Part shown: one piece after another, positions 4,900-30,304 of the stretch
Numbering within the stretch: the first letter of the stretch is position 1
How the letters are laid out: each line of letters starts with the position of its first letter
Assembly (NCBI RefSeq): GCF_003231495.1
Contig: NZ_PQWO01000004.1
Location: 60,001 to 92,000 of the forward strand
From: Acaryochloris thomasi RCC1774
Lineage (GTDB): Bacteria; Cyanobacteriota; Cyanobacteriia; Thermosynechococcales; Thermosynechococcaceae
Direction of reading: 5' to 3'
Length of the DNA: 32,000 nucleotides
The notes under the pieces: model-generated
The model's input: only the letters and a program-made list of their open reading frames with translations
What the model was told of the DNA's origin: nothing
The model's database searches: none
Made by a program: the position numbers and the translations under genes

Positions 4900-5819
4900 A
4901 GTAAATCGTCCTTTGACGTATCAGTATTTGAGGAACGGTCTTTAGCCTGAATGCGAGACTGCTCGACATAGCGAGTCTCTCGATAGAGGTGGGCCTCCAT
5001 TTCGGTTCTCAGGCCATCGTAGGCAGGATGATGTTCGACCGAGTTGCGATCGCGCGGTCTCGGGAACGGCACATCCAAAATCTGGGCAATCTTAGCGGCA
5101 GGGCCACGGGTCATCATCACGATCTTGTCCGAGAGCAACAGTGCCTCATCAATACTGTGGGTAATCATGATCACCGTCTTGCGGTGCTGCTCCCAAATGC
5201 GCTCAATCTCTTCCTGCAGGTAGCCCCGCGTCAGGGCATCCAGTGCTCCAAAGGGTTCATCCATCAGCAACACCTTAGGGTTGATCGCTAGCGCCCGCGC
5301 AATCCCGACCCGCTGCCGCATTCCACCCGACAGCTCATGGGGATATTTACGTTCGGCTCCTATCAGATCGACGAGTTCAATATTCTCGCTCACAATTTGC
5401 TTAATGCGGGCCTTTGACAGCTTCGGATAGACTGTTTCAACCGCAAACCCAATATTGCCAGCCACCGTCATCCAGGGCATCAGAGCATAGTTCTGGAAGA
5501 CCATTCCCCGATCTGGCCCTGGCCCTGTAACGGGCTGGTTATCCATTGTCACCGTGCCGGTCGTCGCCTCACTCAGCCCGCCGATGATGTTGAGCAGCGT
5601 CGATTTTCCGCAGCCTGAGGGGCCAATGATCGTGACAAAGGTATTGTGCTCAATATCGAGACTCACCTCATCAATCGCCACAAAGTCGGGCGAACTCTGC
5701 CGATTGAACATCCCCCGTTTGCCGGGAAAGACCTTGGAGACCTGACTGAGGCTCAACTGAATGCCTGTAGGGGCTTCCATCGCAGGCGCTTGGGGATCAG
5801 AAATAGTGTGCATGATCAT
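4896..5819 (-). CDS. cynD: cyanate/nitrate-type ABC transporter ATP-binding protein
   Basis: Walker [10 protein letters not shown], signature LSGGMRQRV, Walker B LLMDEPF. 4-nt overlaps with both cynB and cynS. Confidence 0.8.
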
Positions 5820-8410: not shown

Positions 8411-9000
8411 GGGCCTGACGCATATCAAAAATCAGAAGAGAGCAGAAAGATATACGGGCAAAAACTAGAAAGCCCCAAATATTTTCCTTTGGAAGAATTT
8501 CTTTTTGTAACTCAGCGTGCATAGATTGCTAAGGGTCTTGCATAAAAGTGCTAAGCCTGCGTTATGCTTCGTGACAGACAGTTACAGCCCCTCGCTTCAG
8601 GTAACTTAAAGCTAACCATACAAGGAAATATTGAACTGCAGTCATGTTGATGTACTTCAGCCCAAATATCTATTCAAATAGTATTTAAAAGACAGCTTTC
8701 TTTCAGAAGGTCTAATTCTCTTGAAAGCTAAAACATTCTTTCAGGTAAAGCTAAAATTCTGAAGAAAACTACTCACTGCTTTTGCTACTTGCTAACGATT
8801 TTGTAGAGAGAAGCAATTTTTCTACTCTGCTTCTGAATAAAGGCTACCAGCTACTCTACTCCCAGGACATTGGACGATCTATGGCAGGCATAGGATTTTC
8901 TTTTGATCTGTCTGGGAATACTCATAAAGGTATTGCCGTCTAAATCTGGATCAACACTCATTCAGGGTTCGGTTCAGGCAGCAGGCTCTACTCACTTTGG

Positions 9001-11846: not shown

Positions 11847-13127
11847 ATGATCTGGAATCGGCGAAATTTCCTCATTGCTGCAGGGTTAGGATCCGCCGCC
11901 TCTACCATTACAGCTAATCAGACACTCGCTCAGCCTTCACAGGCAGAGAAAGAGGTAGCGCTAGAAAATTTGAAGGATTGGGACCAGGTCCGCGATTTCT
12001 TTAACCTTGATCCAGACTACATTCATTTGGCTGGATTACTGATCGCCTCTAACCCGGCCAATGTTCAAGCTGCGATTGAATCCCATCGCACGGGTCTGGA
12101 CAATAATCCAACCCACTACCTTTCCGACCACAGGCGAAATCTAGAGGCTGAGGTGCGGCAGAGTGCGGCCAACTATCTTGGTGTTCAACCGGATGAAATT
12201 GCGTTAACTGACAGCACGACGATGGGGACTGGACTGGTCATTAACGGGCTGGCGATTCGTCCTGATCAGGAAATGCTGACGACTGAGTTTGATTACTACT
12301 CGACCCATGCCTCGCTGCGCTATAAAGCTGATCGCACTGGGGCCGCAGTACGAGAGATTCCGCTCTATCAAGATATCCAAAACGTCTCTGAGGATGAAAT
12401 GGTGGAGACGTTGGTGGGGGCGATTCGGCCCAACACCCGACTGGTGACGGCAACCTGGGTGCATTCTAATACGGGCCTTAAGGTTCCGATTGCACAAATC
12501 AGTGAACGGTTGAAGGCGGTCAATGCCAATCGAGACGAGGAGGATCGCGTTTTGTTTTTTGTGGATGGTGTGCATGGTCTGGGGGTGGAGGAATGCGATT
12601 TGAGTGAGATCGATTGCGACTTTTTTGTGGCGGGAACCCACAAGTGGATGTTTGCGCCCCGAGGGTCGGGCTTCATTTGGGGCAATCCGAGATCTCAGAA
12701 GGCGGTGACGCCGACGATTCCGACGTTTAGTAGAGGTGCGGGTTGGGGTGGATGGATGACGCCGGGTGGGTTCAAGCCGTTTGAGCACCAGTGGGCGATG
12801 GTTCAGGCGTTTGCGTTTCATGAGCAGATTGGACAGAAGCGCGTTAGGAAGCGGCTGCATCGGTTCAGCGAACAGATGAAAAAGGGGTTGGCGAAAATGG
12901 AGCATGTGACGCTCTATACGCCAGTTGATCAGGATGTTTCAGCGGCTATTGTTTGTTTTGATGTAGATGGGTCGTCTCCACAACAGGTTGTCGATGGTTT
13001 GAGAGAGCAGAATATTATTGCTAGTACAACTCCCTATGCGACATCCTATGCTCGGGTGTCGCTTGGGATTTATAACACTTCGGAAGAAATTGAAAGGACT
13101 TTGAGGGCAATTCGTGAGCTCGCTTGA
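11847..13127 (+). CDS. class-V aminotransferase-fold PLP enzyme with a Tat signal peptide
   Basis: N-terminus MIWNRRNFLIAAGLGSAAS...LAQP has a twin-arginine motif. The PLP-lysine context is VAGTHKWMFAPRGSG. Resembles the isopenicillin-N-epimerase / cysteine-desulfurase-like fold. Confidence 0.75.
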   Translation: MIWNRRNFLIAAGLGSAASTITANQTLAQPSQAEKEVALENLKDWDQVRDFFNLDPDYIHLAGLLIASNPANVQAAIESHRTGLDNNPTHYLSDHRRNLEAEVRQSAANYLGVQPDEIALTDSTTMGTGLVINGLAIRPDQEMLTTEFDYYSTHASLRYKADRTGAAVREIPLYQDIQNVSEDEMVETLVGAIRPNTRLVTATWVHSNTGLKVPIAQISERLKAVNANRDEEDRVLFFVDGVHGLGVEECDLSEIDCDFFVAGTHKWMFAPRGSGFIWGNPRSQKAVTPTIPTFSRGAGWGGWMTPGGFKPFEHQWAMVQAFAFHEQIGQKRVRKRLHRFSEQMKKGLAKMEHVTLYTPVDQDVSAAIVCFDVDGSSPQQVVDGLREQNIIASTTPYATSYARVSLGIYNTSEEIERTLRAIRELA

Positions 13128-13442
13128 TGTTCCCTTGGACGTCTTAATTTGCCTGATAACACTCTAGGGAAAGGCAAAAGAAAAGCGTCTTTAATGCTTT
13201 TCAAGCATAGCTTTCAGGAGATATAGGTTGAGTTTCCGTGTCGGCAAATTTCCGTACTGCCGATCCGTAGGGAGAGGTGCTAGTGTAGAGCTGGCTGGCT
13301 TGTGGAGAGAAGCAGGCTCCTTGGCAAATTTGTGTTAGGAGGAAGTTTGCCTCCTAAGCATAGTTAGACTTCGAGTTCCGGCATGCTCGTTTTGTCTTTG
13401 TTGAGGGAATCCTACTAAAAATGATAGATCTTGATCCTAGTC

Positions 13443-13988
13443 ATGCTTGATTTAACTAAAGAGCAATCGGTAAGTGCCATTGAGCAGAATATTTCTGCCA
13501 CTGAATCTCAGATATCTCACTTAACGTTAAGGCTTGAAAAAGCTAAGGAGGAAGTACAAGAGTGGGTTGAAGCAAATGCTGCTCTTTCGCAATCGGCAAC
13601 AGAAGCAAGAGCTGAAACTCAATCGATGGGTCGAGGTCTTGGAGGTGCGATACTAGGTTCTAAATATAGAGCTGCAAGCAGGAGAACTGCTGCATCAATC
13701 AACGCTGGAATTGCCCGAGATGTCGCAAGCAAGAGAGCACAGATTAAAGAAGGCAAACGGATTGCACAAGCGATAGCAAAAGATATTAAGTCTCAAATTA
13801 GTCAACTCAAAGCTGATTTAAAGTGTTTAAAATCGCAGAAAAAAGAACTTTCATCAAAGAAAAAAGAGACTAAGCAGTCTGTGCAATCTCTTAATCTATT
13901 ACAGAAACTTCACGAGGTGTATGAGTTAGGTCTATTGACTGAGGGGGAATACGAAGAAAAACGCCAAAAGCTAGTAGAGAAAATATAG
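13443..13988 (+). CDS. coiled-coil protein with a C-terminal SHOCT-like motif
   Basis: Starts at the ATG at 13443 (the track uses an upstream TTG). Long Lys/Glu/Gln/Ala coiled-coil. The C-terminus LLQKLHEVYELGLLTEGEYEEKRQKLVEKI resembles a SHOCT domain. Lies in an AT-rich islet. Confidence 0.55.
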   Translation: MLDLTKEQSVSAIEQNISATESQISHLTLRLEKAKEEVQEWVEANAALSQSATEARAETQSMGRGLGGAILGSKYRAASRRTAASINAGIARDVASKRAQIKEGKRIAQAIAKDIKSQISQLKADLKCLKSQKKELSSKKKETKQSVQSLNLLQKLHEVYELGLLTEGEYEEKRQKLVEKI

Positions 13989-14183
13989 TTTAATTGTCTT
14001 CATTCAAAATAATTGCTGAGGGTGATGTAACCTTTTTTATGCAATTACTATGGTATAAATTTTTTCCGGTGTTCTCCTGCGGGTCCAACCAGCCAATGCA
14101 GCGGGACGCTCGAAACACCTTACTGTTCAACGTTTTAAATTAACTCTCGCGCTCCCGATGGGGTGGCCGTTAGGCAGCTTTCG

Positions 14184-14743: not shown

Positions 14744-15520
14744 TTAGCCCATTTTCAACCAACTAAAGATTGAGCTAGCCGTAAGAGTCAGTTCTAGACT
14801 CGGAAGAACGGGAATAACTCGATCACCACGACATAATGCTGGCTGTTGCTGAGGCTGTAAACCTACATTCCGCAGGTAGTACACTTTTCTAGAAGCAATA
14901 TTAGAGAAGGGTTACAGGGCCTGTCAAAAATCGGCTCTGTTCTATCAATCCAGGTTGCATCACCTGAAAAAACAGATCACAGACTCTCTAGAAGCCAGAT
15001 TCGGAAAAGCAATACAGGTTAATCGGCCACCTGTCTCTCAACGCTCTGAGGGAGGTATTCTTGAATTTCGGGCTAAGGCTCAAAGCCTTTACTGGGAAAG
15101 GCTTACAAGAATTCACTAACCTGCGGAATGTAGGTGTAAAAACAAAATATTGAGATCATCTGAATCGATAAACCAACCAACGCGACTACTATTCTCCAGG
15201 CAATAAAGAATATTGTCTAACACTTGATTGGGTCGCTGTTCAAGGGACAGAATTTCAATGATCCAATCTGGCGATCGATTAAAGTTATCGGGAACATTAC
15301 CGTCTGAAGTGAATGATATATGCTCCCACTGAAAACTGACATATCCGGGAAAACCGATCTCGCTCCAAAACCGCATCTCAATTCTGGAAAAGCATAAGCA
15401 ACTTTCGTATTTTACAGAGACTTGATTGATAATCGCGCAGAGTTTTCTCTTTACCCAACATACTGGACGCTTTAACTTTATGCTCATGCCCCTGATGGTT
15501 GATCCGTTAGACTTATCCAA
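14744..15520 (-). pseudogene. Uma2-family gene, 5'-truncated and split by a MITE insertion
   Basis: The upstream part reads ...PDWIIEILS...VGWFIDSDDLNILF. It is interrupted, then resumes at 14860 as LQPQQQPALCRGDRVIPVLPSLELTLTASSIFSWLKMG*. The joined text is colinear, residue for residue, with the intact Uma2 at 11250-11822. Confidence 0.65.
14861..15136. mobile_element. 276-bp MITE (family B) with 17-bp perfect terminal inverted repeats
   Basis: ACCTACATTCCGCAGGT (14861-14877) versus ACCTGCGGAATGTAGGT (15119-15135). Flanked by TAA direct repeats (14858-14860 and 15137-15139). No ORF inside. Confidence 0.7.
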
Positions 15521-16466: not shown

Positions 16467-17522
16467 TTATCCAAAACCTTTTGATGGTGTGTCCATACAC
16501 CAAATCATCAACTGTCCATCCATTCCGCCACCCACTAAATAATGCCCCAAAGGATGCCACGCAAGACAGGCCACTCCGGCACTCAACCCCTTAAGCGTTT
16601 GATTCACCTTCTTAGCCCCCTTCCAAAGTAAAACCCGCTGATCCTCTCCCCCAGACGCTAAAAGCTGAGTCTGTGGCTGAAATGCGATCGCATTCACAAA
16701 ACCCTGATGCTCCGTTAGCACATGACTATTCCAGTTGCCGCCCTCACGCCGCCAAACGGTAATCCCATCCACACAGGCCGCAGCTAACAGAGCCGCACCG
16801 TCAGCCCAAGTAATGTGACTCACTTTGCCCGGAAACCCCTGCATCAACCAAGGTGGTGGCTTCTCCCACGCCAACACCGAAAGCGTGCGATCCAGATTGC
16901 CCGACGCTAAATACTGACCATCCGCTGACCATCGACAGGTTAGACTCGCCCCCGGTACCTCAAACAACAGCAGCGGCATCTCTGGTGTCTGTAGATCCCA
17001 AATCTTGACGCCACCGTGACCGCTCACAGCCAAATATTCCCCAGCCGGATGCCAAGCTAAATCCAATACCGACGAGGACTCAAACTCCAGCGTAGCCGTT
17101 TGCTTTTGGTGCTGCAGATCCCAGATTTGGACCTGGCGATGGGTTGCGATCGCAACCCTCTCCTCCACCGGATGCCAAGCTAAGTGATCAATCCAAACCG
17201 ACGGATAAACCTGCTCAAGTACAAGCTTCGGAACATCCTGCAAAACATCCCACACCCATACCTTGCCCGCCTGTCCCCCCACTGCAAGAAACTGGCTGTT
17301 CGCCGAGAACCCAAGGCAGTCACAGGAAAAGTCACCTGCCGTCAGCAAATCCAGCCTAACTCTCTGCGGACTTTCGGCCTCTTTCCACAGCACGGCTTCC
17401 CCTGCCGCTGAGATGGCTGCTAGATATTTGCCGTTGCTCGACCAGATAACCCCTCGCACATAATCAGATAACTGGTCTTGGGCTTGCTTTCTAAACGTGA
17501 TCAATGCACTCACACCAAACAA
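16467..17522 (-). CDS. WD40-repeat protein
   Basis: Repeated ...GH...V..LAW(H/S)P.G..LA.GG.D..V.(I/L)W blades. Its start overlaps the stop of the upstream COG0523 gene by 13 nt. Confidence 0.8.
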   Translation of the reverse strand: MFGVSALITFRKQAQDQLSDYVRGVIWSSNGKYLAAISAAGEAVLWKEAESPQRVRLDLLTAGDFSCDCLGFSANSQFLAVGGQAGKVWVWDVLQDVPKLVLEQVYPSVWIDHLAWHPVEERVAIATHRQVQIWDLQHQKQTATLEFESSSVLDLAWHPAGEYLAVSGHGGVKIWDLQTPEMPLLLFEVPGASLTCRWSADGQYLASGNLDRTLSVLAWEKPPPWLMQGFPGKVSHITWADGAALLAAACVDGITVWRREGGNWNSHVLTEHQGFVNAIAFQPQTQLLASGGEDQRVLLWKGAKKVNQTLKGLSAGVACLAWHPLGHYLVGGGMDGQLMIWCMDTPSKGFG

Positions 17523-18469
17523 GCTTTAAACGAATCCTGGAGGTTCATTTCATCCAAGTCTCGGCCAATAAACACCATCTCATTCTTGCGTGTTTCTGTT
17601 GGTTTCCAATTGCGATCGGGAGCACCATCAAAGATCATGTGGACGCCTTGAAATACAAACCGCTGCTCCTCGTTCTCCACGTTGAGAATCCCCTTCATCC
17701 GAAAGATATTGGGACCGTGGGTTTCTAACAGATTCGTCATCCAAGTATTGAGCTTATCTAGATTTACCGCCCCCGCTTCTACAATGGAGCGAGAATACAC
17801 AGAATCATCATGCTCATGAGCATCCTCGCCCAAAAACTCTGGGTCAATCTCTAGCGCCCGCTTCAGGTCAAAGGCCTTCACTCCTAAAACTGAATCCATG
17901 CCAATCTCGCAGTGCTGCGTATGGTGAATTTTGACCAGTGCATTCATGGCCCGCATTTTTTGTTCGAGTTCCTTCAGCTTATCTGGTTCAACCAGATCGG
18001 TCTTATTGAGTAAAATTACATCCGCGAAGGCGATTTGCTCCTGCACCTCTTCGCTATCCCAGTGCGCTTCAACATGCTGAGCATCTACCACCGTGACGAC
18101 TGCATCTAAATCAAGCTGGGCTTGAATCTCTTCATCCACAAAGAACGTCTGGATGACGGGAGCTGGATCGGCGAGTCCAGTGGTCTCAATCACGAGGTGG
18201 TCAAACTGATCGCGGCGGCGCATGAGGTTGCCGATAATCCGAATTAGGTCTCCTCGTACCGTGCAGCAGATACAGCCATTATTCATTTCAAAGATTTCTT
18301 CATCAGCATCGATCACAAGCTGATTATCAATGCCCACTTCACCAAACTCATTGACGATCACAGCTACTTTCTTGCCATGCTCGTGGGTCAGAATTCGATT
18401 GAGAAGCGTCGTCTTTCCGGCACCTAGATAGCCCGTCAGTACGGTAACGGGAACGGCTGAACTAACCAT
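17510..18469 (-). CDS. COG0523 GTPase metallochaperone, paralog 2
   Basis: Same motifs as 1786-2766 ([29 protein letters not shown]). By eye roughly two thirds or more of residues are identical to paralog 1. Confidence 0.85.
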   Translation of the reverse strand: MVSSAVPVTVLTGYLGAGKTTLLNRILTHEHGKKVAVIVNEFGEVGIDNQLVIDADEEIFEMNNGCICCTVRGDLIRIIGNLMRRRDQFDHLVIETTGLADPAPVIQTFFVDEEIQAQLDLDAVVTVVDAQHVEAHWDSEEVQEQIAFADVILLNKTDLVEPDKLKELEQKMRAMNALVKIHHTQHCEIGMDSVLGVKAFDLKRALEIDPEFLGEDAHEHDDSVYSRSIVEAGAVNLDKLNTWMTNLLETHGPNIFRMKGILNVENEEQRFVFQGVHMIFDGAPDRNWKPTETRKNEMVFIGRDLDEMNLQDSFKACLV

Positions 18470-22149: not shown

Positions 22150-25100
22150 ATGGATAAAGTCTCTCAAACGGCTGTCTCAATGTTTGTTGCATCCGGTTTG
22201 TTGCTGTGCCCAGATGTTACTTTCGTTCTTCCGGCCGCGCAGGCTCAGGAGATCCAATCTGTTGATTTGTTGTTAGAAGAGGGCGATCTCCACTTGCAGA
22301 AGGGCCAGCTTTTCAAAGCATTAACCGCCTACGAACAGGCTTCTCTTCAACTGCGCAATCAAGCCGAGAAAGCCCAAACGCTGATTAAGACTGCAAAAAT
22401 TCACAGTGGCCTTTTACAAGAATCGCAGGCGTTAGAGACAGCACTGCAGGCATTGGCGATCTACGAAACCCTCTCAGATCCGTTGGGTAAAGCAGAGGCG
22501 CTCACTGAGGTCGGGGATGCCTATCTCGACCTTGAACACAATCAAAAAGCTTTAGAGATCTTGCAGCAGGCGCTCACAATTCTGCAGCGAGAAAAACGGC
22601 CCACTCAACGAATCCGTCAGGGATTAGCCGAGACTCTCAACGATCTCGGTCGCGTTCATCGCAATCTAGAGCAGTATCCCCAGGCCAATCGGTTTTTTAA
22701 GCAATCCCTCGCCCTACATCGACGGATGGGCAATCAATTTGAAGTGGGTCGTCTGAAGGGTGCCATTGGCGGCACGTACGTGCTTCAAGGCCAGCGAACC
22801 CAGGCGGTCCCCTCTCTGAAAATGGCCCAGCAGACGCTTGCTCAAGTGTTAGCTGACAGCCAACGCAGCGGGAACCGTACGCTGGAGGCCCAGACAATTT
22901 ATCACATGGGTCTCAACGCTCTTCTGGAAGGACAGCAGGGCTTAGAGCAGTTTGAGCAAGCGATCGCACTTTTTCGAGACCTCAACTATCGGGTTCGAGA
23001 AGCCGATGCCCTTTCGACTCTCGGCATTTATCACCAGATTCGAGGTCAGTTTGTTCAGCAGCTTCAATACGAGCAACAGGCCCAAGCGATTTTTCAAACC
23101 ACAGGTGAACCGATCTACACCAACAACAGTTTGTCCACAGTCGGGCAGACCCTAAAACGACTGGGACGATACCCCGAAGCCATCAAGACTTACGAACAGG
23201 TCCTGGTCAACTATCGCAAATTGGGGCAGTCGTCTCCCCAACGAGATCGCTATCCGCTTCAGGTCAAGATGTCTCAGGTTCTTGCTAGGCTCGGTGCCGC
23301 ACAAGCGAAACTGGGTCAGTACTCACAAGCAATTAAAACCCTTGAGGGCAGACTGAGTCCCTATACAGTGGTTCTCAAGTCGAATAGTCTCTCGTTTTCT
23401 GATCGAAAGCAGATGGTCAACCTTCTGCAGCAGCTAGGGGACGCCCATAATCAGATTGATCAGTACCCGCAAGCGCTCACTTATCTCAATCAGGCTTTAA
23501 AGCTCTCGCAGCCTCTGCAGGACCCTCTGGCCAGCACAGCCATTTACTCTAGCCTCGGGAACGTCTATGCTCGCCTAGGCCAGAATGACAAATCTCTAGA
23601 TTTATACAGGCAAGCGCTTCAGCTATATCAACAGGCCCTAACGCAGACCGCAGAACAACTCGGGCACAATCCATCAGAGGTGGGGCAGCAATCCTCCGGT
23701 AGCAGCACCGGCCAAAATCTTCTGAGAATGGTTCAACCCACTGGCAACAACGATTTAAAGGCACTCGCGTTGTCAACGCTGGGAGCAGAATATGCGGAGC
23801 AAGGGCAGCCGAGTCAGGCTCTACAGACCTATCAGCAGGCTTTAGGGCTGTATCGGAGGGCAGGCGATCGCCCCCAAGAGAGTTTAACGCTAACTAGCAT
23901 CGGCCTTCTGCATCTCGGCCAGAAACGATATCCGCAAGCAATAGAAAGCTTTCAGCAGAAGCTAGCGCTGTCTCGGTCACTGGACAATCGGTCTGATACC
24001 GCTCGAACGCTGAGTCTGATCGGAGACATTCATTACCAACAAAAGCGGTATGCTCAAGCAGAGCCAATGCTCCGGGAAGCTGCTGATCTGTGGGACAGCC
24101 TACAGCCCGGACTCAGCGATCAGGATCGGGTCACGCAGCGGGATTCGATCGTCAGTACGTTTGATGCTTTGCAGCAAACGCTAATTGCCCGAGATCAGCC
24201 GAAAGCTGCCTTAGAGATTTCAGAACGAGGCCGAGCCAGAGCGTTTGTCGAACTCCTGGCGTCGCGTTCAGCGAAGGTTGCCAAGCGTCAGCAACCCGTC
24301 GAGCCTCTAACGATCAAACAAATTCAGCAGGTTGCCCAAGATCAGCAGGCAACGCTCGTCGAATATTCGATTGTGGACGGACAGATTTTTATCTGGGTGG
24401 TTCAGCCCACGGGTGCTATCCATCTCGTACGGGTGGATCGCCTCAGTGGGTCTTTAGAGAAGTTGATCCGCAATAGTCGCACAGCAATTGGCGCTCGCGG
24501 ACGCGGACAGATCGCGGTGGTACCAACCTCTAAAGGACAGTCTGATCAGTCACAAAAATCACTGCAAGAGCTGCACCGGCTTTTGATTGCGCCTGTTGCG
24601 CAGTATCTGCCGACAGATCCCGAGGAGCGTGTTATTTTCATCCCCGAGGGAGAACTATTTCTGGCTCCTTTCGCAGCGTTTCAAGATCGCCAAGGGCAGG
24701 CTCTATTACAACAGCATACTGTGGTTACGGCTCCCTCAATTCAGGTCCTGACGCTGACGCGTCAGCAACAGCAGCGGCTCACCGCTGGGGGAGAGGCACT
24801 AATTGTGGGCAATCCGACGATGCCTCGTTTAGCCGGTCAGTCAGCGCCGCTTTTGCCTTTACCTGGAGCAGAGAAAGAAGCGATCGCAATTGCAAAAATG
24901 CTCAACACTCAAGCGATCACAGGCTCCCAAGCCACAAAGACTAAGATCGCTCAGCAGATGCCGAAGGCCCGCCTGATTCACTTCGCCACCCACGGTTTGC
25001 TGGACAATATACAAGGTTCAAACGATGTACAAAATTTAGAGATACCGGGTGCGATCGCACTAGCTCCTGACAACACAGGGGAAGCTACGGATGGTTTCTT

Positions 25101-25425
25101 AACGGCCAGCGACATTGGTGAAATGGAGCTAACTGCAGACTTGGTGGTGCTGAGTGCCTGCGACACTGGAGGAGGCAGAATCACCGGGGACGGGGTGATT
25201 GGCCTATCTCGCTCTTTCCTCTCATCAGGCGTGCCCAGTGTAGTGGTGTCGCTATGGAAGGTGCCCGACGAATCTACTGCACTGCTAATGACGACGTTCT
25301 ATCAAGAGCTGCAGCGGGGTGCTGATAAAGCCCAAGCTCTGCGACAGGCGATGTTAACCACAAAACAGAAGTATCCTAACCCCCTAGATTGGGCGGCCTT
25401 TACCCTCATCGGAGAAGCAGAGTGA
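22150..25425 (+). CDS. secreted TPR-repeat / CHAT-domain (caspase-like) protein
   Basis: N-terminal Sec-type signal (...VLPAAQAQE), about 700 aa of TPR-like repeats, and a C-terminal CHAT domain with His (IHFATHG) and Cys (VLSACDTG) dyad motifs. Confidence 0.85.
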   Translation: MDKVSQTAVSMFVASGLLLCPDVTFVLPAAQAQEIQSVDLLLEEGDLHLQKGQLFKALTAYEQASLQLRNQAEKAQTLIKTAKIHSGLLQESQALETALQALAIYETLSDPLGKAEALTEVGDAYLDLEHNQKALEILQQALTILQREKRPTQRIRQGLAETLNDLGRVHRNLEQYPQANRFFKQSLALHRRMGNQFEVGRLKGAIGGTYVLQGQRTQAVPSLKMAQQTLAQVLADSQRSGNRTLEAQTIYHMGLNALLEGQQGLEQFEQAIALFRDLNYRVREADALSTLGIYHQIRGQFVQQLQYEQQAQAIFQTTGEPIYTNNSLSTVGQTLKRLGRYPEAIKTYEQVLVNYRKLGQSSPQRDRYPLQVKMSQVLARLGAAQAKLGQYSQAIKTLEGRLSPYTVVLKSNSLSFSDRKQMVNLLQQLGDAHNQIDQYPQALTYLNQALKLSQPLQDPLASTAIYSSLGNVYARLGQNDKSLDLYRQALQLYQQALTQTAEQLGHNPSEVGQQSSGSSTGQNLLRMVQPTGNNDLKALALSTLGAEYAEQGQPSQALQTYQQALGLYRRAGDRPQESLTLTSIGLLHLGQKRYPQAIESFQQKLALSRSLDNRSDTARTLSLIGDIHYQQKRYAQAEPMLREAADLWDSLQPGLSDQDRVTQRDSIVSTFDALQQTLIARDQPKAALEISERGRARAFVELLASRSAKVAKRQQPVEPLTIKQIQQVAQDQQATLVEYSIVDGQIFIWVVQPTGAIHLVRVDRLSGSLEKLIRNSRTAIGARGRGQIAVVPTSKGQSDQSQKSLQELHRLLIAPVAQYLPTDPEERVIFIPEGELFLAPFAAFQDRQGQALLQQHTVVTAPSIQVLTLTRQQQQRLTAGGEALIVGNPTMPRLAGQSAPLLPLPGAEKEAIAIAKMLNTQAITGSQATKTKIAQQMPKARLIHFATHGLLDNIQGSNDVQNLEIPGAIALAPDNTGEATDGFLTASDIGEMELTADLVVLSACDTGGGRITGDGVIGLSRSFLSSGVPSVVVSLWKVPDESTALLMTTFYQELQRGADKAQALRQAMLTTKQKYPNPLDWAAFTLIGEAE

Positions 25426-25466
25426 TAGGCTATTTCCTAACAGGCAAAAAGGTTCCATCGAAAAAA

Positions 25467-25931
25467 ATGCATAAAAATCACCTCACATCATTGCTATTAG
25501 TTTCGATGTTGCTTCCTTTCAATATTTCTGCGAGAGCAGCAGAGATCCATCAAGCCGTGAGTCAGCAGTGTGTGCTGCAGATAGAAGCGACTGAGAAAAG
25601 GCTTCTAGAGGTCTCAACTCTCAATCTTGTAGAAGCGGGTACGGACAAATATTCAGATTCTGAACCCGGTCGGCCTGTATACGCAACTCACTCTGTCTAC
25701 TTCACTCTCGAAAAGGAAGGAGGAGAAAATCTCATGAATTCTCCGGTCTTGATGAAAAGTCTTTCGACGGCTCTGTTCGCGCAATGCAATACAGCAGGAT
25801 CCGTCGTTTTTGGATTTAATAAATCCGACTGGTCCGAAACTTTCGGGAAAATGACAGATGGCACCATACAGAAGTTCGATTGCGCTGAAGATCCAACCCA
25901 GATCACTTGGGGGACGCAACCCTGTCTTTAG
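25467..25931 (+). CDS. secreted hypothetical protein with 4 Cys
   Basis: Starts at the ATG at 25467 (MHKNHLTSLLLVSMLLPFNISARAAE signal peptide), 41 nt after the CHAT stop. The upstream extension in the track overlaps the CHAT gene. Confidence 0.5.
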   Translation: MHKNHLTSLLLVSMLLPFNISARAAEIHQAVSQQCVLQIEATEKRLLEVSTLNLVEAGTDKYSDSEPGRPVYATHSVYFTLEKEGGENLMNSPVLMKSLSTALFAQCNTAGSVVFGFNKSDWSETFGKMTDGTIQKFDCAEDPTQITWGTQPCL

Positions 25932-26080
25932 GTGAACTGTAAACCAACTGACAGCTAGACGACAGTATCCTAATCAGCCTTTATTCTCACTTGGCCAGCA
26001 AGGTAATAGGCTGCTATTGCAATAGGCACCAAAAGCTTATCAAATTTGCTCTAAAACTTTAATCGATAGGTACTTATACG

Positions 26081-26440
26081 TTGACCGAACCTGACTGGCT
26101 AGCTCGCTGCATCGAATATTTCTCAAATGAGACTGACGAATTAGTGGGGGAGTTTAACCTACCTCAAGTTGAACTACGGGATTTGCAGAAGCTGTGGAAC
26201 TTGCCGTTAGATGAACCAATAGTTGGTGGTTTCGAAATTACGGAAGCGCAAGCACAATTCTTTCGAGACTTAGCCAGTATTGATTTTGATTTCACGAAAT
26301 ACAGTTTCATTCTGGATGCCTACACAACTGACTGGGAGGCGACGAGACGCGCCGGAGGCTACATGGGCCTTTTCCCACCACCTCGAACGTTGCTTGCTTT
26401 TCCTGATGCCCAGCGAGTAATGCTAGAAGCTGAGGGATAA
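26081..26440 (+). CDS. hypothetical protein (TTG start)
   Basis: 119 aa. The pattern IEYFSNETDELVGEFNLP...DEPIVGGFEITEAQ...KYSFILDAY weakly recalls small immunity-like proteins. Unverified. Confidence 0.4.
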   Translation: MTEPDWLARCIEYFSNETDELVGEFNLPQVELRDLQKLWNLPLDEPIVGGFEITEAQAQFFRDLASIDFDFTKYSFILDAYTTDWEATRRAGGYMGLFPPPRTLLAFPDAQRVMLEAEG

Positions 26441-26457
26441 AACTAGCGAAGGCTGTA

Positions 26458-26635
26458 TAGAACCCATTTGAGATCTTTTCTTAACGTTCAAGGGCTTCAG
26501 GCGTCCCGTTTTAGATAGCCCTGCAATCATAAAGGACTACGAAATAAAAAAATGCATGTATCCTACCATCTACATCATGCAAACAACGCAGCTATAGAGC
26601 TTGTAACTACAGCATTAGATGCCAAATAGGTTCTA
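26458..26635. mobile_element. 178-bp MITE derived from the IS at 29165-30101
   Basis: The left end TAGAACCCATTTGAGATCTT and right end AAATAGGTTCTA match the IS termini. The first ~45 bp resemble the IS left end. Flanked by TA/TA. Confidence 0.65.
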
Positions 26636-26827
26636 TAACCTTTGCACATAGTATACTTTTGCAAATGCAATGCTGTACAAATGCTGAAGAGTTTTACATG
26701 CACCACTTATTTTCTGCTAAGCCAGCTTAAACTAAGCGCGGCAGCAAATCAGTAATTAGCTGAGGAGTGCAAGGATCGAGGAGCATTCCAGGCACATTAA
26801 CGAAACTAAGCTTAGTCTTTGTTTTTG

Positions 26828-26920
26828 CCTACATTCCGCAGGCAAGAGAATTCTGTGAAACCCTTGCCAATGAAAGCTTTAAGCCTGGTCTGAGCAAAAT
26901 TATTTTCCCACCCTAAGAGA
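26828..26920. mobile_element. solo end fragment of MITE family B
   Basis: CCTACATTCCGCAGG (26828-26842) plus about 80 bp that align with the inner side of the 15135 end of the MITE at 14861-15136. No partner TIR is nearby. Confidence 0.55.
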
Positions 26921-27120
26921 CAAGCTCTTGTGCCATAGATCCGCCCACAATGACTTTCTATTCTTGCGTCTGGCCAATCATCGATCCGCTACGTCATCCA
27001 ACTTAAATCGAGTTGACAGAAAAACAAATAGTACGAACTAAGCTTTGTAGCTTTATTCTAGAACTACTTACTTATCGTGTTACGAGGGCAGGTGCGTATA
27101 GCAACAACTAAAATCTATTT

Positions 27121-28395
27121 TTAGACAGCTTGACAATCATTTTTATCAGTATTTGTCAGCCACACTTCTACCTGAAAATATTCATGCCCTCCTTCCTCTC
27201 CACTTTCAACACTTATATTCTCATCAACTCTAAATTCTGTTGAGATATCATTTTCTATATTAGTCTTTTGCTCTACCTCCTCTATATAATTTCCCATTGA
27301 GTCTTCCAATTCATCAATGACTTTCTTTGCATATTCTTTATCTTTACTATTTGTATAAAGACGAATTAGATTCTCGCAAGAACTACCATTAGAGCCTTTG
27401 AAACCCACTTTCGGAATCAATAAATCATTCTTGAAGCTCAAATCCGCGCCTTCCCCTTTAGTAAAGTAGCGATGCAAATGCTTGTAAAATTTATCATTTA
27501 ATTTTTCGCTTAAATATTTAAATGTACTTGAAGACGCAAGCTCATCATCATGATAAAAAATCAAAAACACTTTCTTCTTGAAAGTAGCGACAATTGTTTG
27601 CCTAGCTAGTTCATTCTTTAAGTCAGAATCTTGATCATCACCCTGGCTTTTACTATCCGGATTAAGTAAACTTATCAACAACAAGTACAAGAAGTTATTA
27701 TGTATTAATTCGTAGCTTTCATCAGAAAATTTAAAATCTTCGGATTCACCTAAATATGCTAAAACTGAATCCAGTTCATCTTTATTGTTATTTCGAAGAT
27801 GATTAAGTAGCTTGTCAAGGTATTTTGCAGTTCTTTCATGAACTTCAACCACCAAGTCAGCATCTTCAATAAATGAGTGAATTTCGATCAATCTTTGCTC
27901 AAAATTATAACGATATAGAACATTATCATTTTTATCAAAGTTATCACTATTTAGGAAGTTATTTATCTCATTTTTACTTGTCTTCCTGATCGCTCTTCCT
28001 GTTCTATTTATTATTCTTCCTGTAATATCATAGTTCAACAAAAGATTCTGAAAATGGCTATAATAATTATTGTCTGGGATCTCTCCACCAAGTCCAAACG
28101 CGGCCAAACTATTATCAAGCGCTAAAAGCGCAATATCTCTCTCTGTACTATCATTACGAAGAGATTCAATTAAATCTGTCACAACCTCTGTAGTTCTAAA
28201 CCTACTTTCAATAATATCCATTCTCTCTGATATTTCATGCGATATAAATGCATTGTAAAGTCCTAAGATCGCAACTGCAGCTGTTGAGATAGCCGCAAAA
28301 CCAGAAGCAAAATGGTTAAAATTCCGAAGAAATTTTTTAGTAAATAAAGTTCTTTTTTTCTTGGGGTTAGAGACTTTTTCTTTAAGTAAATTCAT
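27121..28395 (-). CDS. membrane-anchored orphan protein in the AT-rich island
   Basis: 424 aa. Basic N-terminus, one TM helix (FASGFAAISTAAVAILGLYNAF), then an Asn/Asp/Glu/Lys-rich body with no motif I recognise. A long ORF in very AT-rich DNA is unlikely to arise by chance. Confidence 0.65.
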   Translation of the reverse strand: MNLLKEKVSNPKKKRTLFTKKFLRNFNHFASGFAAISTAAVAILGLYNAFISHEISERMDIIESRFRTTEVVTDLIESLRNDSTERDIALLALDNSLAAFGLGGEIPDNNYYSHFQNLLLNYDITGRIINRTGRAIRKTSKNEINNFLNSDNFDKNDNVLYRYNFEQRLIEIHSFIEDADLVVEVHERTAKYLDKLLNHLRNNNKDELDSVLAYLGESEDFKFSDESYELIHNNFLYLLLISLLNPDSKSQGDDQDSDLKNELARQTIVATFKKKVFLIFYHDDELASSSTFKYLSEKLNDKFYKHLHRYFTKGEGADLSFKNDLLIPKVGFKGSNGSSCENLIRLYTNSKDKEYAKKVIDELEDSMGNYIEEVEQKTNIENDISTEFRVDENISVESGEEGGHEYFQVEVWLTNTDKNDCQAV

Positions 28396-28441
28396 AACAA
28401 ATACTCTAACTTAGACCATATGCAAAACGAAAACTTAATCC

Positions 28442-28471
28442 TATAAATGCATTCATTAGAATGCATTTATA
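28442..28471 (-). terminator. perfect 13-bp stem / 4-nt loop hairpin between the peptide gene and the orphan gene
   Basis: TATAAATGCATTC-ATTA-GAATGCATTTATA. On the minus strand it is followed by GGATTAAGTTTTCGTTTTGC (two T4 runs). Confidence 0.45.
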
Positions 28472-28482
28472 AAACCTTAAAA

Positions 28483-28635
28483 TCAATGGCAATGCTCAAT
28501 TCCATATGAATCATAATGGCATCCATATTCGTTAGTATCACCACTGTGAGAGAAACTATGCTCAGCTTTAAATAAGAAGACAAAAGAGAAGAAAGCCAGT
28601 ACTAAAACAATAGAATACAATCTAATAATTTTCAT
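28483..28635 (-). CDS. 50-aa exported His/Cys/Tyr-rich peptide (not in the ORF track)
   Basis: Hand translation gives MKIIRLYSIVLVLAFFSFVFLFKAEHSFSHSGDTNEYGCHYDSYGIEHCH*. GAGAGG SD lies 7 nt before the ATG at 28635. Signal-like N-terminus. A 51-codon open frame in stop-rich AT DNA. Confidence 0.5.
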   Translation of the reverse strand: MKIIRLYSIVLVLAFFSFVFLFKAEHSFSHSGDTNEYGCHYDSYGIEHCH

Positions 28636-29164
28636 GTCTTAACCTCTCAGCACCAACAAAAATTCAGCAAGAAACAAGAGTCTATAAAAAGTCTGCCTCT
28701 TTATTCCTTTACAATACATTCTTCGGGAATTTTATTAACTATCTACAGCTCTGCTGTCTAACTGTCAGAGAGTAAAGATTCCTTTACGCAAATAAAACGT
28801 AAACTTATACAAACTTTACTCCAGGAGAAGCAAATACGGCATTAGCAGAAATGGATATATAGTAAGAGTTCAGCGGAATCTGCAGAATTCAATCATTATC
28901 TATTGCTTTGATGCAGGATAAAATAGGGGATATTTTGCATTTGACAGAGAAATAAAAAACATTGAATTCTCGTTAGAAAGACTTGAAGCATTGAGTATCC
29001 TAATATGCAAAGTTGTGGTCTTTTGTTTTTGTCAAGATTCTTTAACAGCCTTTCTTCAATACTGAAACTAAGCACCCAGTGATAGCAACCCTAGTTGCCA
29101 GAAATTGATGCTGAAAACTGCATCCTCCAGAGCAAGCGATAGCCAAGTCTTAAAGCAACACTTA

Positions 29165-30101
29165 TAGAACCCATTTGATATCTTTTTGTATTTGGTTCAA
29201 GGTACTCAAAACTGTCCAACCAATACACCATGACGTATTCGAGCAGCCTCACCGACAAAGAATGGGAAATCGTTGAACCGCTGTTACTCCAGCTCTTACC
29301 TGCCAAGAAACAGACGCGCTCTTCCCACTGGACAAAGCGAGAGCTCTTTGATGGGATACTCTATCAACTCAAAAATGGTTGTAACTGGGCTGACCTCCCC
29401 AAAGACCTTCCCCCATACTCAGCGGTCTACTGGCACTACAAGCAGTGGCGAGCCGCAGGGGTGTTGGAGACGCTGATGAATGTTTTACATCGACACGTTC
29501 GCCAACAGGTTAAAAAAAGCCCAAATGGACGAGGTTAATCATCATTGATTCCCAAGCGGTGAAAAATACCTGTAATGCCAGTGTGACCTCGAAAGGCTTT
29601 TGTTTTTACAAAGCCACCAATGGCATTAAAAGACATCTAGCCGTTGATACCCTTTGCTTTCCTTTCTTTACGCACTGCACTGCGGCGAATATCTCGGATG
29701 ATGCAGGATTGATTGAGATGCTGGCACTCAATATCGACTATTTCAAGTCAAAACCCGTTAACATCCCGAAGATCACTATTTTGCTAGATCATGGCTATCA
29801 CATTGACCATTTGACAGCGGCGTTAGATAAAATTTATCCCCAGATCATGACGAAAATCAAGTTTGAGCTTTCAACAAAACCGTCTAAACAGGAGAAGGTC
29901 GCGCAAGGGAAATATGGCTTTGTTCTGGCTATCGCTCGGTGGGTGATTGAGCGCTCCAATGCTTGGATGGACAGATGCAAAAGTCTCACGAAGAACTTTG
30001 AGTGAACCTTGTCGAATGCGACAACCAAAATCAACCTTTGCTTCGTCAGGCTAATGATTAAGAGGCTTGCAGACTCTGCTTAAGATCTCAAATGGGTTCT
30101 A
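29165..30101 (+). mobile_element. IS5-family insertion sequence (IS427/IS1031-like), 937 bp
   Basis: Terminal inverted repeats TAGAACCCATTTGA(T/G)ATCTT at both ends. Flanking TA/TA (29163-29164 and 30102-30103). Two-ORF DDE transposase inside. Confidence 0.8.
29230..30005 (+). CDS. IS5-family DDE transposase, OrfA-OrfB joined by a predicted -1 frameshift
   Basis: OrfA (29230-29538) is DUF4096-like (LTDKEWEIVEPLL...YWHYKQW). The -1 frame is open from the A7 run (29512-29518) and reads KPKWTRLIIIDSQAVKN...ERSNAWM, ending at 30005. Confidence 0.8.
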
Positions 30102-30124
30102 TATTGAACTTTGTATATAATCTC

Positions 30125-30304
30125 TCATTTTTTGTGAGCTTTCCAGGTGCCGCCATAGACGTAGTGCGGGTTGTTCTGCCGCACAATTGACCAGCAGAGA
30201 TCGCAAACAAACTGCCACTGCCCTGACTCATCGAACTGCACACGATAAAGGGTGTTCGCGGATTTGCAGCAGCGATCGCAATCTTTCTCACGCTTCCGAC
30301 CCAT
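30125..30304 (-). CDS. 59-aa zinc-ribbon-like protein (missed by the ORF track)
   Basis: Hand translation gives MGRKREKDCDRCCKSANTLYRVQFDESGQWQFVCDLCWSIVRQNNPHYVYGGTWKAHKK*. Two CxxC pairs and a YGGTWKA ending that I recall from a widespread small-protein family. Contains a HIP1 site. Confidence 0.6.
   Translation of the reverse strand: MGRKREKDCDRCCKSANTLYRVQFDESGQWQFVCDLCWSIVRQNNPHYVYGGTWKAHKK

Follow-up and report, generated by a model that had tools for sequence, protein, structure and literature searches.

A mobile-element-framed cassette of Acaryochloris thomasi encodes a probable YHYH_alt-type exported peptide and an orphan membrane protein

Two neighbouring genes in an AT-rich block of the Acaryochloris thomasi RCC1774 genome, one encoding a peptide of 50 amino acids (aa) and the other a protein of 424 aa, raise the question of what such a pair might do and whether the two genes act together at all. 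The block lies within the 32,000-nucleotide (nt) stretch of DNA that was analysed as a whole (contig NZ_PQWO01000004.1, positions 60,001-92,000; hereafter the window). An initial annotation, made from the letters of the window alone, had described two co-oriented open reading frames (ORFs) of 50 and 424 aa on the minus strand, and both were found exactly where it had placed them. The answer we favour, which we hold tentatively and to which we give a rough probability of 0.45, is that these genes constitute a mobile accessory cassette serving extracytoplasmic metal handling. The features that carry the argument are the following:

27106-28886, minus strand: AT-rich cassette of 1.8 kb, GC content 0.323, the unit common (by blastn) to the window and to positions 6923-8730 of contig L001
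28643-28648, minus strand: Shine-Dalgarno sequence GAGAGG of the peptide gene, 7 nt before its ATG
28483-28635, minus strand: gene of the 50-aa pre-peptide, a predicted divergent YHYH_alt-type exported peptide
28549-28635, minus strand: predicted Sec signal peptide, residues 1-29, with a hydrophobic core at residues 1-25
28486-28548, minus strand: predicted mature peptide of 21 residues, HSGDTNEYGCHYDSYGIEHCH, as judged from homology to canonical members and from the selection on this part
27121-28395, minus strand: gene of the 424-aa orphan type-II membrane protein (C1752_01579), the ORF being identical to an annotated hypothetical protein
28240-28314, minus strand: single transmembrane (TM) anchor, residues ~28-52 (Kyte-Doolittle), with the N-terminus predicted to be cytoplasmic
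27124-27612, minus strand: putative C-terminal alpha/beta domain, residues 262-424, from alignments, a pattern shared with the distant relative P0005 and a low-confidence AlphaFold2 model

The only other known copy of the cassette is carried by L001, a 9.2-kb Logan contig. Among 5.8 billion sequences, each of the two proteins had one close relative, and both relatives were encoded on this contig: P0002 (417 aa, 78% identical to the 424-aa protein) and P0004 (50 aa, 72% identical to the peptide). Positions 28886-27106 of the window aligned to L001 6923-8730 with 79.9% identity over 1816 bp (blastn), at a synonymous divergence (dS) of ~0.47 between the copies. For the 424-aa gene the ratio of nonsynonymous to synonymous divergence (dN/dS) was 0.26, compared with 0.8-1.2 in the off-frames, and for the peptide gene it was 0.28 overall, rising to 0.50 in the signal part and falling to 0.04 in the mature tail. 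Because dN/dS is low between the two copies, both ORFs are protein-coding genes, real and under purifying selection. The GAGAGG Shine-Dalgarno sequence noted in the initial annotation is likewise present, and is kept as GAGAGAG in L001.

The cassette clearly stands out from its host. GC content was 0.31-0.34 across positions 27000-29000, compared with ~0.50 in the remaining window, which bears out the A+T richness noted in the initial annotation, and at third codon positions (GC3) the two-gene module (GC 0.323) reached 0.27, compared with 0.54 for neighbouring host genes. The HIP1 octamer (GCGATCGC) occurred 23 times in the window, where 0.4 copies were expected, and a scan of the window found no copy between 25058 and 30272, so that the gap reported earlier exists and is wider than had been stated. 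In L001, which carries cyanobacterial genes (CP12-CBS, FeThRed_A) at a GC content of ~0.51 and one HIP1 site, GC likewise falls to 0.31-0.34 over the cassette. The boundaries of the cassette are identical in both hosts, and its flanks are non-syntenic except for a 94-bp end of a miniature inverted-repeat transposable element (MITE) on the 3′ side in both. The mobile elements around the window copy are:

26456-30103, unstranded: composite-transposon-like frame of 3.65 kb, with its outer ends (26456-26477 and 30082-30103) in inverted repeat
26456-26637, unstranded: MITE of 182 bp, whose ends match those of the neighbouring insertion sequence (IS)
26818-26886, unstranded: fragment of a second MITE-like repeat family, with another copy at window 15076-15146 (77% identity over 71 nt)
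29163-30103, plus strand: IS5-family insertion sequence of 941 bp, intact in length, with its transposase split over two frames
29230-29538 and 29559-30005, plus strand: transposase ORFs of this IS, DUF4096 and DDE_Tnp_1, in two frames

Because the MITE and the IS have common terminal repeats and their outermost 22-nt ends are 100% complementary, the AT-rich block sits inside a composite-transposon-like frame, as passenger DNA flanked on both sides by terminal inverted repeats from a single IS family. Each of the four element ends adjoins TA or TATA, and target duplications are therefore uninformative for composite transposition. The distal half of the MITE also follows the cassette in L001 (8723-8816, 86% identical); apart from this one frame end, L001 keeps a remnant of a different transposase. 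Given GC and GC3, the HIP1 gap, the terminal-repeat frame and a second copy in a non-syntenic context, the block is foreign, horizontally acquired DNA framed by mobile elements, in agreement with the initial annotation, whose limits for the MITE and the IS are here corrected to those listed.

The same annotation had held that neither protein matches a family that can be named, which proved right for the 424-aa protein and wrong for the peptide. The latter matched NCBIfam NF033223 ("YHYH_alt") with 19.8 bits (E 7e-4, profile positions 2-25 of 25). The curated cutoff of this family, 30 bits, is missed by the window peptide and by its L001 sibling P0004 (19.0 bits) alike, and automatic annotation would not assign the window peptide to it. 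A hidden Markov model (HMM) of our own, built from 38 non-redundant canonical domains of which none came from this cassette, gave both siblings 32.6 bits (E 6e-9 among 1296 six-frame segments, positions 1-24) and the next-best ORF of the window 6.2 bits, scores to be read with the caveat that the scan pattern collecting the canonical set derived partly from an alignment containing the window peptide. When the peptide (FSHSGDTNEYGCHYD-SYGIEHCH and stop) was aligned end to end with canonical members, 12 of 22 positions were invariant, and the conserved positions H-S-G, T, G-C-H, D/N, G and H-C-H were retained. The architecture is also the same, with a predicted signal peptide directly before the motif (residues 30-50) and a stop directly after it. 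The family match, the invariant positions with the shared architecture and the independent HMM score together argue for a genuine, though divergent, homology of the peptide to the YHYH_alt family. The motif of canonical peptides begins directly after AxA-type sites, and from their A/HSGG junction we infer that the window peptide would be cleaved between SFS and HSG, exposing an N-terminal His.

Other matches were of no use. Pfam PF14240 (the YHYH domain) was not matched by the window peptide or by P0004 at E values up to 10, and PDB sequence searches returned noise only for both proteins, with no solved structure found for the family. A tblastn match of the peptide to a phage "tail component" was rejected, since it rests on a fortuitous HSGDTDEY...DSY string that lacks the Cys/His motif, and weak Pfam and NCBIfam matches to CsiE, SidA, SdpC and MNSV_P7B were set aside as noise, being below cutoffs and not reproduced in the orthologues.

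The canonical members of the family provide the metal context. A tblastn search of plasmids with the peptide tail returned mostly genes annotated as "YHYH domain-containing protein", whose products consist of a signal peptide, then AHSGGTDSQGCHMDHKTGIRHCH, then a stop; one example of a canonical peptide is HSGGTDSQGCHMDHKTGIRHCH. A genome-wide scan yielded 67 canonical loci, all non-cyanobacterial. Apart from the fusions described below, canonical members are solitary exported pre-peptides of 41-45 aa, nearly all ending in HCH followed by the stop. On plasmid pMOL28 of Cupriavidus metallidurans, the peptide WP_225934912.1 (RMET_RS33895) is encoded between cnrY of the cnrYXH-CBA determinant and chrI. 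On Ralstonia insidiosa pRI-1 (WP_151023078.1) and on plasmid PLAsvaD, the peptide gene directly follows czcA of a czcCBA-type resistance-nodulation-division (RND) pump and faces a cusF-type operon. In Cupriavidus gilardii a canonical gene lies near czcRS, and in Acinetobacter one is flanked on one side by the gene of an HMA-domain P1B-ATPase and on the other by those of a divergent CsoR/RcnR repressor and a cation diffusion facilitator (CDF) exporter. A tally of 105 neighbouring ORFs from 28 non-redundant loci, which ignores phylogeny, was headed by Cation_efflux (4), Trns_repr_metal (3), MFS_1 (3), rve (3) and VTT (3), and also contained HAD/P-type ATPases, ChrB_C, a mechanosensitive channel, transposases and integrases. 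Read with that limit, the tally and the individual loci are suggestive of an association with metal efflux that recurs in at least three genera without being universal. The family is named but, to judge from a literature search that found no paper on its members inside metal-resistance determinants, unstudied.

In some genomes the motif is fused to the N-terminus of larger secreted proteins: a 22-residue HSGGT..GCH..HCH motif forms an N-terminal module in loci L037, L041, L073, L075 and L077, where the fusion types comprise an excalibur-like DRDNDGIACE ending, proteins of 332 and 366 aa, and a 189-aa protein with TM segments. Within classic metal-resistance determinants, genes of canonical peptides of 40-45 aa were located at L002 5953-6075 (pMOL28), L003 5938-6072, L004 ~5001-5069 and L046 4953-5078; on PLAsvaD, the position of the peptide gene is annotated as a "mer" ORF.

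The 424-aa protein fits no known family. As the initial annotation had said, it has a single N-terminal TM helix and no recognisable domain, with no significant match in Pfam, NCBIfam, PADLOC, PHROGs or PDB sequences. Because nine Lys/Arg and one Asp/Glu (residues 1-28) precede the single TM helix, it is predicted to adopt an N-in/C-out topology, with an ectodomain of net charge -28 that contains two conserved Cys (340 and 421). When 1.84 billion representatives were searched exhaustively with an HMMER profile, the matches were limited to P0002 and a single marginal one, P0005 (338 aa, E 1.9e-4). A three-sequence profile in a second indexed search found no further relatives, and tblastn against phages and plasmids together with scans of viral contigs and two scans of metagenomes found none of either the 424-aa protein or the peptide variant. 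P0005 shares with the 424-aa protein the N-terminal TM helix, an "ERD(I/L)AL(L/I)AL" helix and a C-terminal pattern in which a Cys immediately precedes an (I/V)R(L/Y)(Y/F) strand and E(V/I)W(L/F)xN...C stands at the extreme C-terminus. To judge from these searches, the 424-aa protein is a true orphan in a three-member family. AlphaFold modelling, which the initial annotation had proposed, was carried out for this protein and yielded models too poor for a fold search, with a predicted local distance difference test (pLDDT) score of 34.8 for the full protein (two sequences) and 41.5 for the C-terminal domain (three sequences).

Contigs carrying P0005 deserve a brief description of their own. Downstream of it, L007 2010-2540 encodes a 176-aa protein of similar build, in which a coiled coil is combined with a single TM helix and a small alpha/beta part at the C-terminus that contains Cys; a PDZ protein comes next. 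Upstream, L007 (1-215) and L008 (1-300) are entirely different beyond ~60 nt from the start codon, with a GC-rich sequence in L007 and L011 as opposed to an AT-rich one in L008 and L012. Because the upstream sequence differs between contigs, the P0005 gene probably also lies at a variable or rearranged junction.

Two non-coding parts of the cassette bear on how its genes are expressed:

28636-28886, minus strand: leader/promoter region upstream of the peptide gene, 71.8% identical to L001
28437-28476, minus strand: terminator-like hairpin with an 18-bp stem and a T-rich tail (z = -4.6), present in the window copy only

The 250-nt leader has three well-conserved blocks in comparison with L001 and lacks any ORF that reaches 30 aa, and Rfam gave no match anywhere in 26300-29300, the leader included. 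The hairpin lies in the spacer between the two genes, which is 42% identical between window and L001. The initial annotation had called it strong and counted it as part of a possible system; it is real, and its role in a system is rejected, since no hairpin was found in the L001 spacer (z = +1.0).

How, then, might the cassette work? In the preferred metal-handling reading, a 1.8-kb passenger, horizontally acquired and held inside the MITE...IS frame, would bring in two real genes. The first would give rise to a Sec-exported pre-peptide with a mature part of ~21 residues, which may fold in the periplasm or thylakoid lumen as a small knuckle that binds divalent metal. Likely ligands would be the N-terminal His, the Asp/Asn, the His of GCH and the terminal HCH, and the two Cys could form a disulfide or serve as extra ligands. 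Such a peptide might buffer, sense or hand over ions of Zn, Ni, Co or Cu. The product of the second gene would be a single-pass N-in/C-out protein whose very acidic extracytoplasmic domain of ~370 aa, probably disulfide-braced, could act in the peptide's compartment, for instance as a tether or acceptor of the metal-loaded peptide or of cations. Export, cleavage site, metal binding and the interaction of the two products are all things that we infer. The reading is suggested by the metal context of the canonical members, by the topology and acidity of the large protein, and by the prediction of Iyer et al. 2021 (PMC7824862) that Zn is bound in the larger YHYH domain by three His together with an Asp. 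Among the three analogies drawn in the initial annotation, the evidence favours that of the metal-binding peptide.

Several observations weigh against this reading. The window peptide scored only 19.8 bits on a profile on which six canonical peptides score 30.7-53.3, and its loop has a one-residue deletion relative to them. No metal-resistance genes were found in or next to the cassette in the window, and a literature search found no experimental paper on YHYH_alt peptides. Many canonical loci adjoin unrelated genes (transketolase, cytochrome c peroxidase with SNase, integrases), and those in a metal context come from few genera and partly from related plasmids. Neither AlphaFold2 model is usable. 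As to the partnership of the two genes, 42 non-redundant stand-alone loci drawn from the 67 canonical ones had no consistent co-oriented, membrane-anchored downstream partner. No relative of the 424-aa protein was found beside canonical peptides, nor any outside its three-member family. The flanks of P0005 contained no YHYH-type peptide in the available 215-300 bp upstream or the 3.5 kb downstream. Finally, co-transcription is uncertain because a terminator-like hairpin separates the genes in the window copy.

The coupling of peptide and 424-aa protein is indeed the weakest step, and a rival account does without it. According to this account, the main competitor and a possible one, the two genes are linked passengers, a stand-alone YHYH_alt-type peptide and an unrelated envelope protein that make up no two-component system. 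The solitary canonical peptides and the peptide-free surroundings of P0005 fit such an account, as do the unconserved spacer, with its hairpin in one copy only, and the fact that the pairing is known from one cassette lineage only. The sole co-occurrence of both genes outside the window is the orthologous cassette of L001, so that two of two copies amount to one cassette seen twice and are not independent evidence. No independent co-occurrence of the peptide with its 424-aa partner was found in other lineages, the viral and metagenome scans being empty. The expectation that the pair is conserved thus held for the only other copy and failed for a recurrent two-component system. On the other side, the genes are co-oriented and only 87-125 bp apart, they have been co-retained under purifying selection at the divergence given above, the limits of the cassette coincide in the two hosts, and the peptide and the 424-aa protein are each predicted to be exposed to one and the same compartment outside the cytoplasm. 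This is the case for coupling, and the evidence is compatible with a functional pair without proving one. Going further than our preferred reading, the cassette could be a self-contained transposable two-component device for extracytoplasmic metal handling or signalling, in which a peptide with a cleavage-exposed N-terminal His would capture metal and dock on an acidic, disulfide-braced orphan ectodomain, a new fold family acting as its dedicated receptor or chaperone. We consider this version doubtful; if it were true, the widespread YHYH_alt peptides beside cnr, czc and P1B-ATPase loci would represent an overlooked class of periplasmic metallopeptides.

The remaining two analogies of the initial annotation, toxin with immunity protein and precursor with processing enzyme, are poorly supported. 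A secreted bacteriocin-like toxin that kills competitors, with the 424-aa protein anchored in the membrane to protect the producer, would suit a small exported peptide encoded beside a membrane protein on foreign mobile DNA, and residues 337-378 of the large protein even gave a weak Pfam match to the CdiI_2 family (PF18593; E 0.011). With 16.9 bits this match is under the cutoff of 26.7, it was obtained for the window protein only (its orthologue P0002 matched no family at E values up to 10), and it was rejected. Moreover, homologous peptides occur alone in many genomes and in metal-resistance operons without an immunity-like partner, PADLOC gave no family match for either protein at E values up to 10 and PHROGs noise only, and the sequence suggests neither a dedicated exporter nor a double-glycine leader, all of which renders a toxin improbable. 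Still less probable is a ribosomally synthesised and post-translationally modified peptide (RiPP) whose precursor would be processed by the 424-aa protein, as in chalkophores or bufferins. Its attraction lies in a His/Cys-rich core after a leader and in a large adjacent gene without assigned function. The leader, however, is an ordinary Sec signal, and searches of Pfam, NCBIfam and PDB sequences revealed no catalytic domain or motif in the 424-aa protein, most of which is predicted to lie outside the cytoplasm, away from ATP and cofactors. No RiPP maturase (MNIO/DUF692, radical SAM, YcaO, LanM) was recognised adjacent to the peptide gene, and homologous peptides elsewhere have no maturase neighbours.

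Compared with the NF033223 peptides of pMOL28 and pRI-1, the window peptide has the same Sec-type signal, the same motif of ~22 residues (H-S-G-x-T-x3-G-C-H-x-D/N-x3-G-x2-H-C-H) ending at the stop, and the same location on accessory or mobile DNA. It differs in its sub-cutoff score, the loop deletion, GD in place of GG and Tyr-rich substitutions, in its cyanobacterial host and in not lying beside metal-efflux genes, and it alone is followed by the 424-aa orphan membrane protein. CusF and CzcE are small periplasmic metal chaperones or buffers with His, Met or Cys ligands, and their genes adjoin those of RND, CDF or P-type exporters. This genomic niche is shared by canonical YHYH_alt peptides, whereas the window peptide has no sequence relationship to CusF or CzcE and is far smaller (~21 aa when mature). 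With the Pfam PF14240 YHYH domain (~200 aa), the peptide shares the D...G-H...H-x-H motif logic behind the name of NF033223 and similar predicted ligands. For that domain, Iyer et al. 2021 (PMC7824862) predict a Zn-dependent hydrolase activity based on a His triad and an Asp; the peptide, a tenth of its size, cannot contain a hydrolase fold, so that the resemblance is at most at the level of the motif. Like a composite transposon, the locus has a passenger lying between a MITE and an IS that belong to a single family, with perfectly matching outer 22-nt ends, and the cassette occurs with the same MITE end at a different locus in a second host. Unlike one, it is accompanied in L001 by one end only and by the remnant of another transposase, and movement of the whole frame as a unit is putative.

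A cyanobacterial cassette is thereby tied, through its peptide, to a broad family of exported peptides of 40 aa found in textbook metal-resistance determinants. If YHYH_alt peptides bind metals, well-studied systems would contain a component that has been overlooked; the peptides lend themselves to testing, since 21-22 residues are within reach of chemical synthesis. The 424-aa protein, for its part, is unusual: its bacterial gene is full-length and clearly under selection, and its family has three known members among 1.84 billion representatives. Since it travels on a compact mobile cassette, it offers a clean target for structure determination and for studying how orphan genes travel. Neither point overturns anything alone, and the functional readings are offered as proposals.

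Around the frame, the DUF7683 protein gene at 26081-26440, left of the MITE, and a 59-aa ORF at 30125-30304 (minus strand) directly right of the IS end, with zinc-ribbon-like CxxC...CxxC spacing, mark a putative insertion junction (26440 / 30125) of the 3.65-kb frame. Further left lie a TPR-CHAT protein of 1091 aa (22150-25425) and a 180-aa ORF with a hydrophobic N-terminus (25389-25931) that overlaps the TPR-CHAT gene; the stretch from TPR-CHAT to DUF7683 (22150-26440) may be a conflict-system neighbourhood. Elsewhere in the window, the gene of a COG0523-type CobW/metallochaperone GTPase (17510-18469) overlaps that of a WD40 beta-propeller protein (16467-17522), and GC skew is strongly negative at 16501-17500. 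Further local dips of GC to 0.40-0.44 occur at 8501-9000, 13001-14000 and 15001-15500, and GC skew peaks sharply (+0.36) at 12501-13000; these dips and the peak may reflect other inserted or unusual segments.

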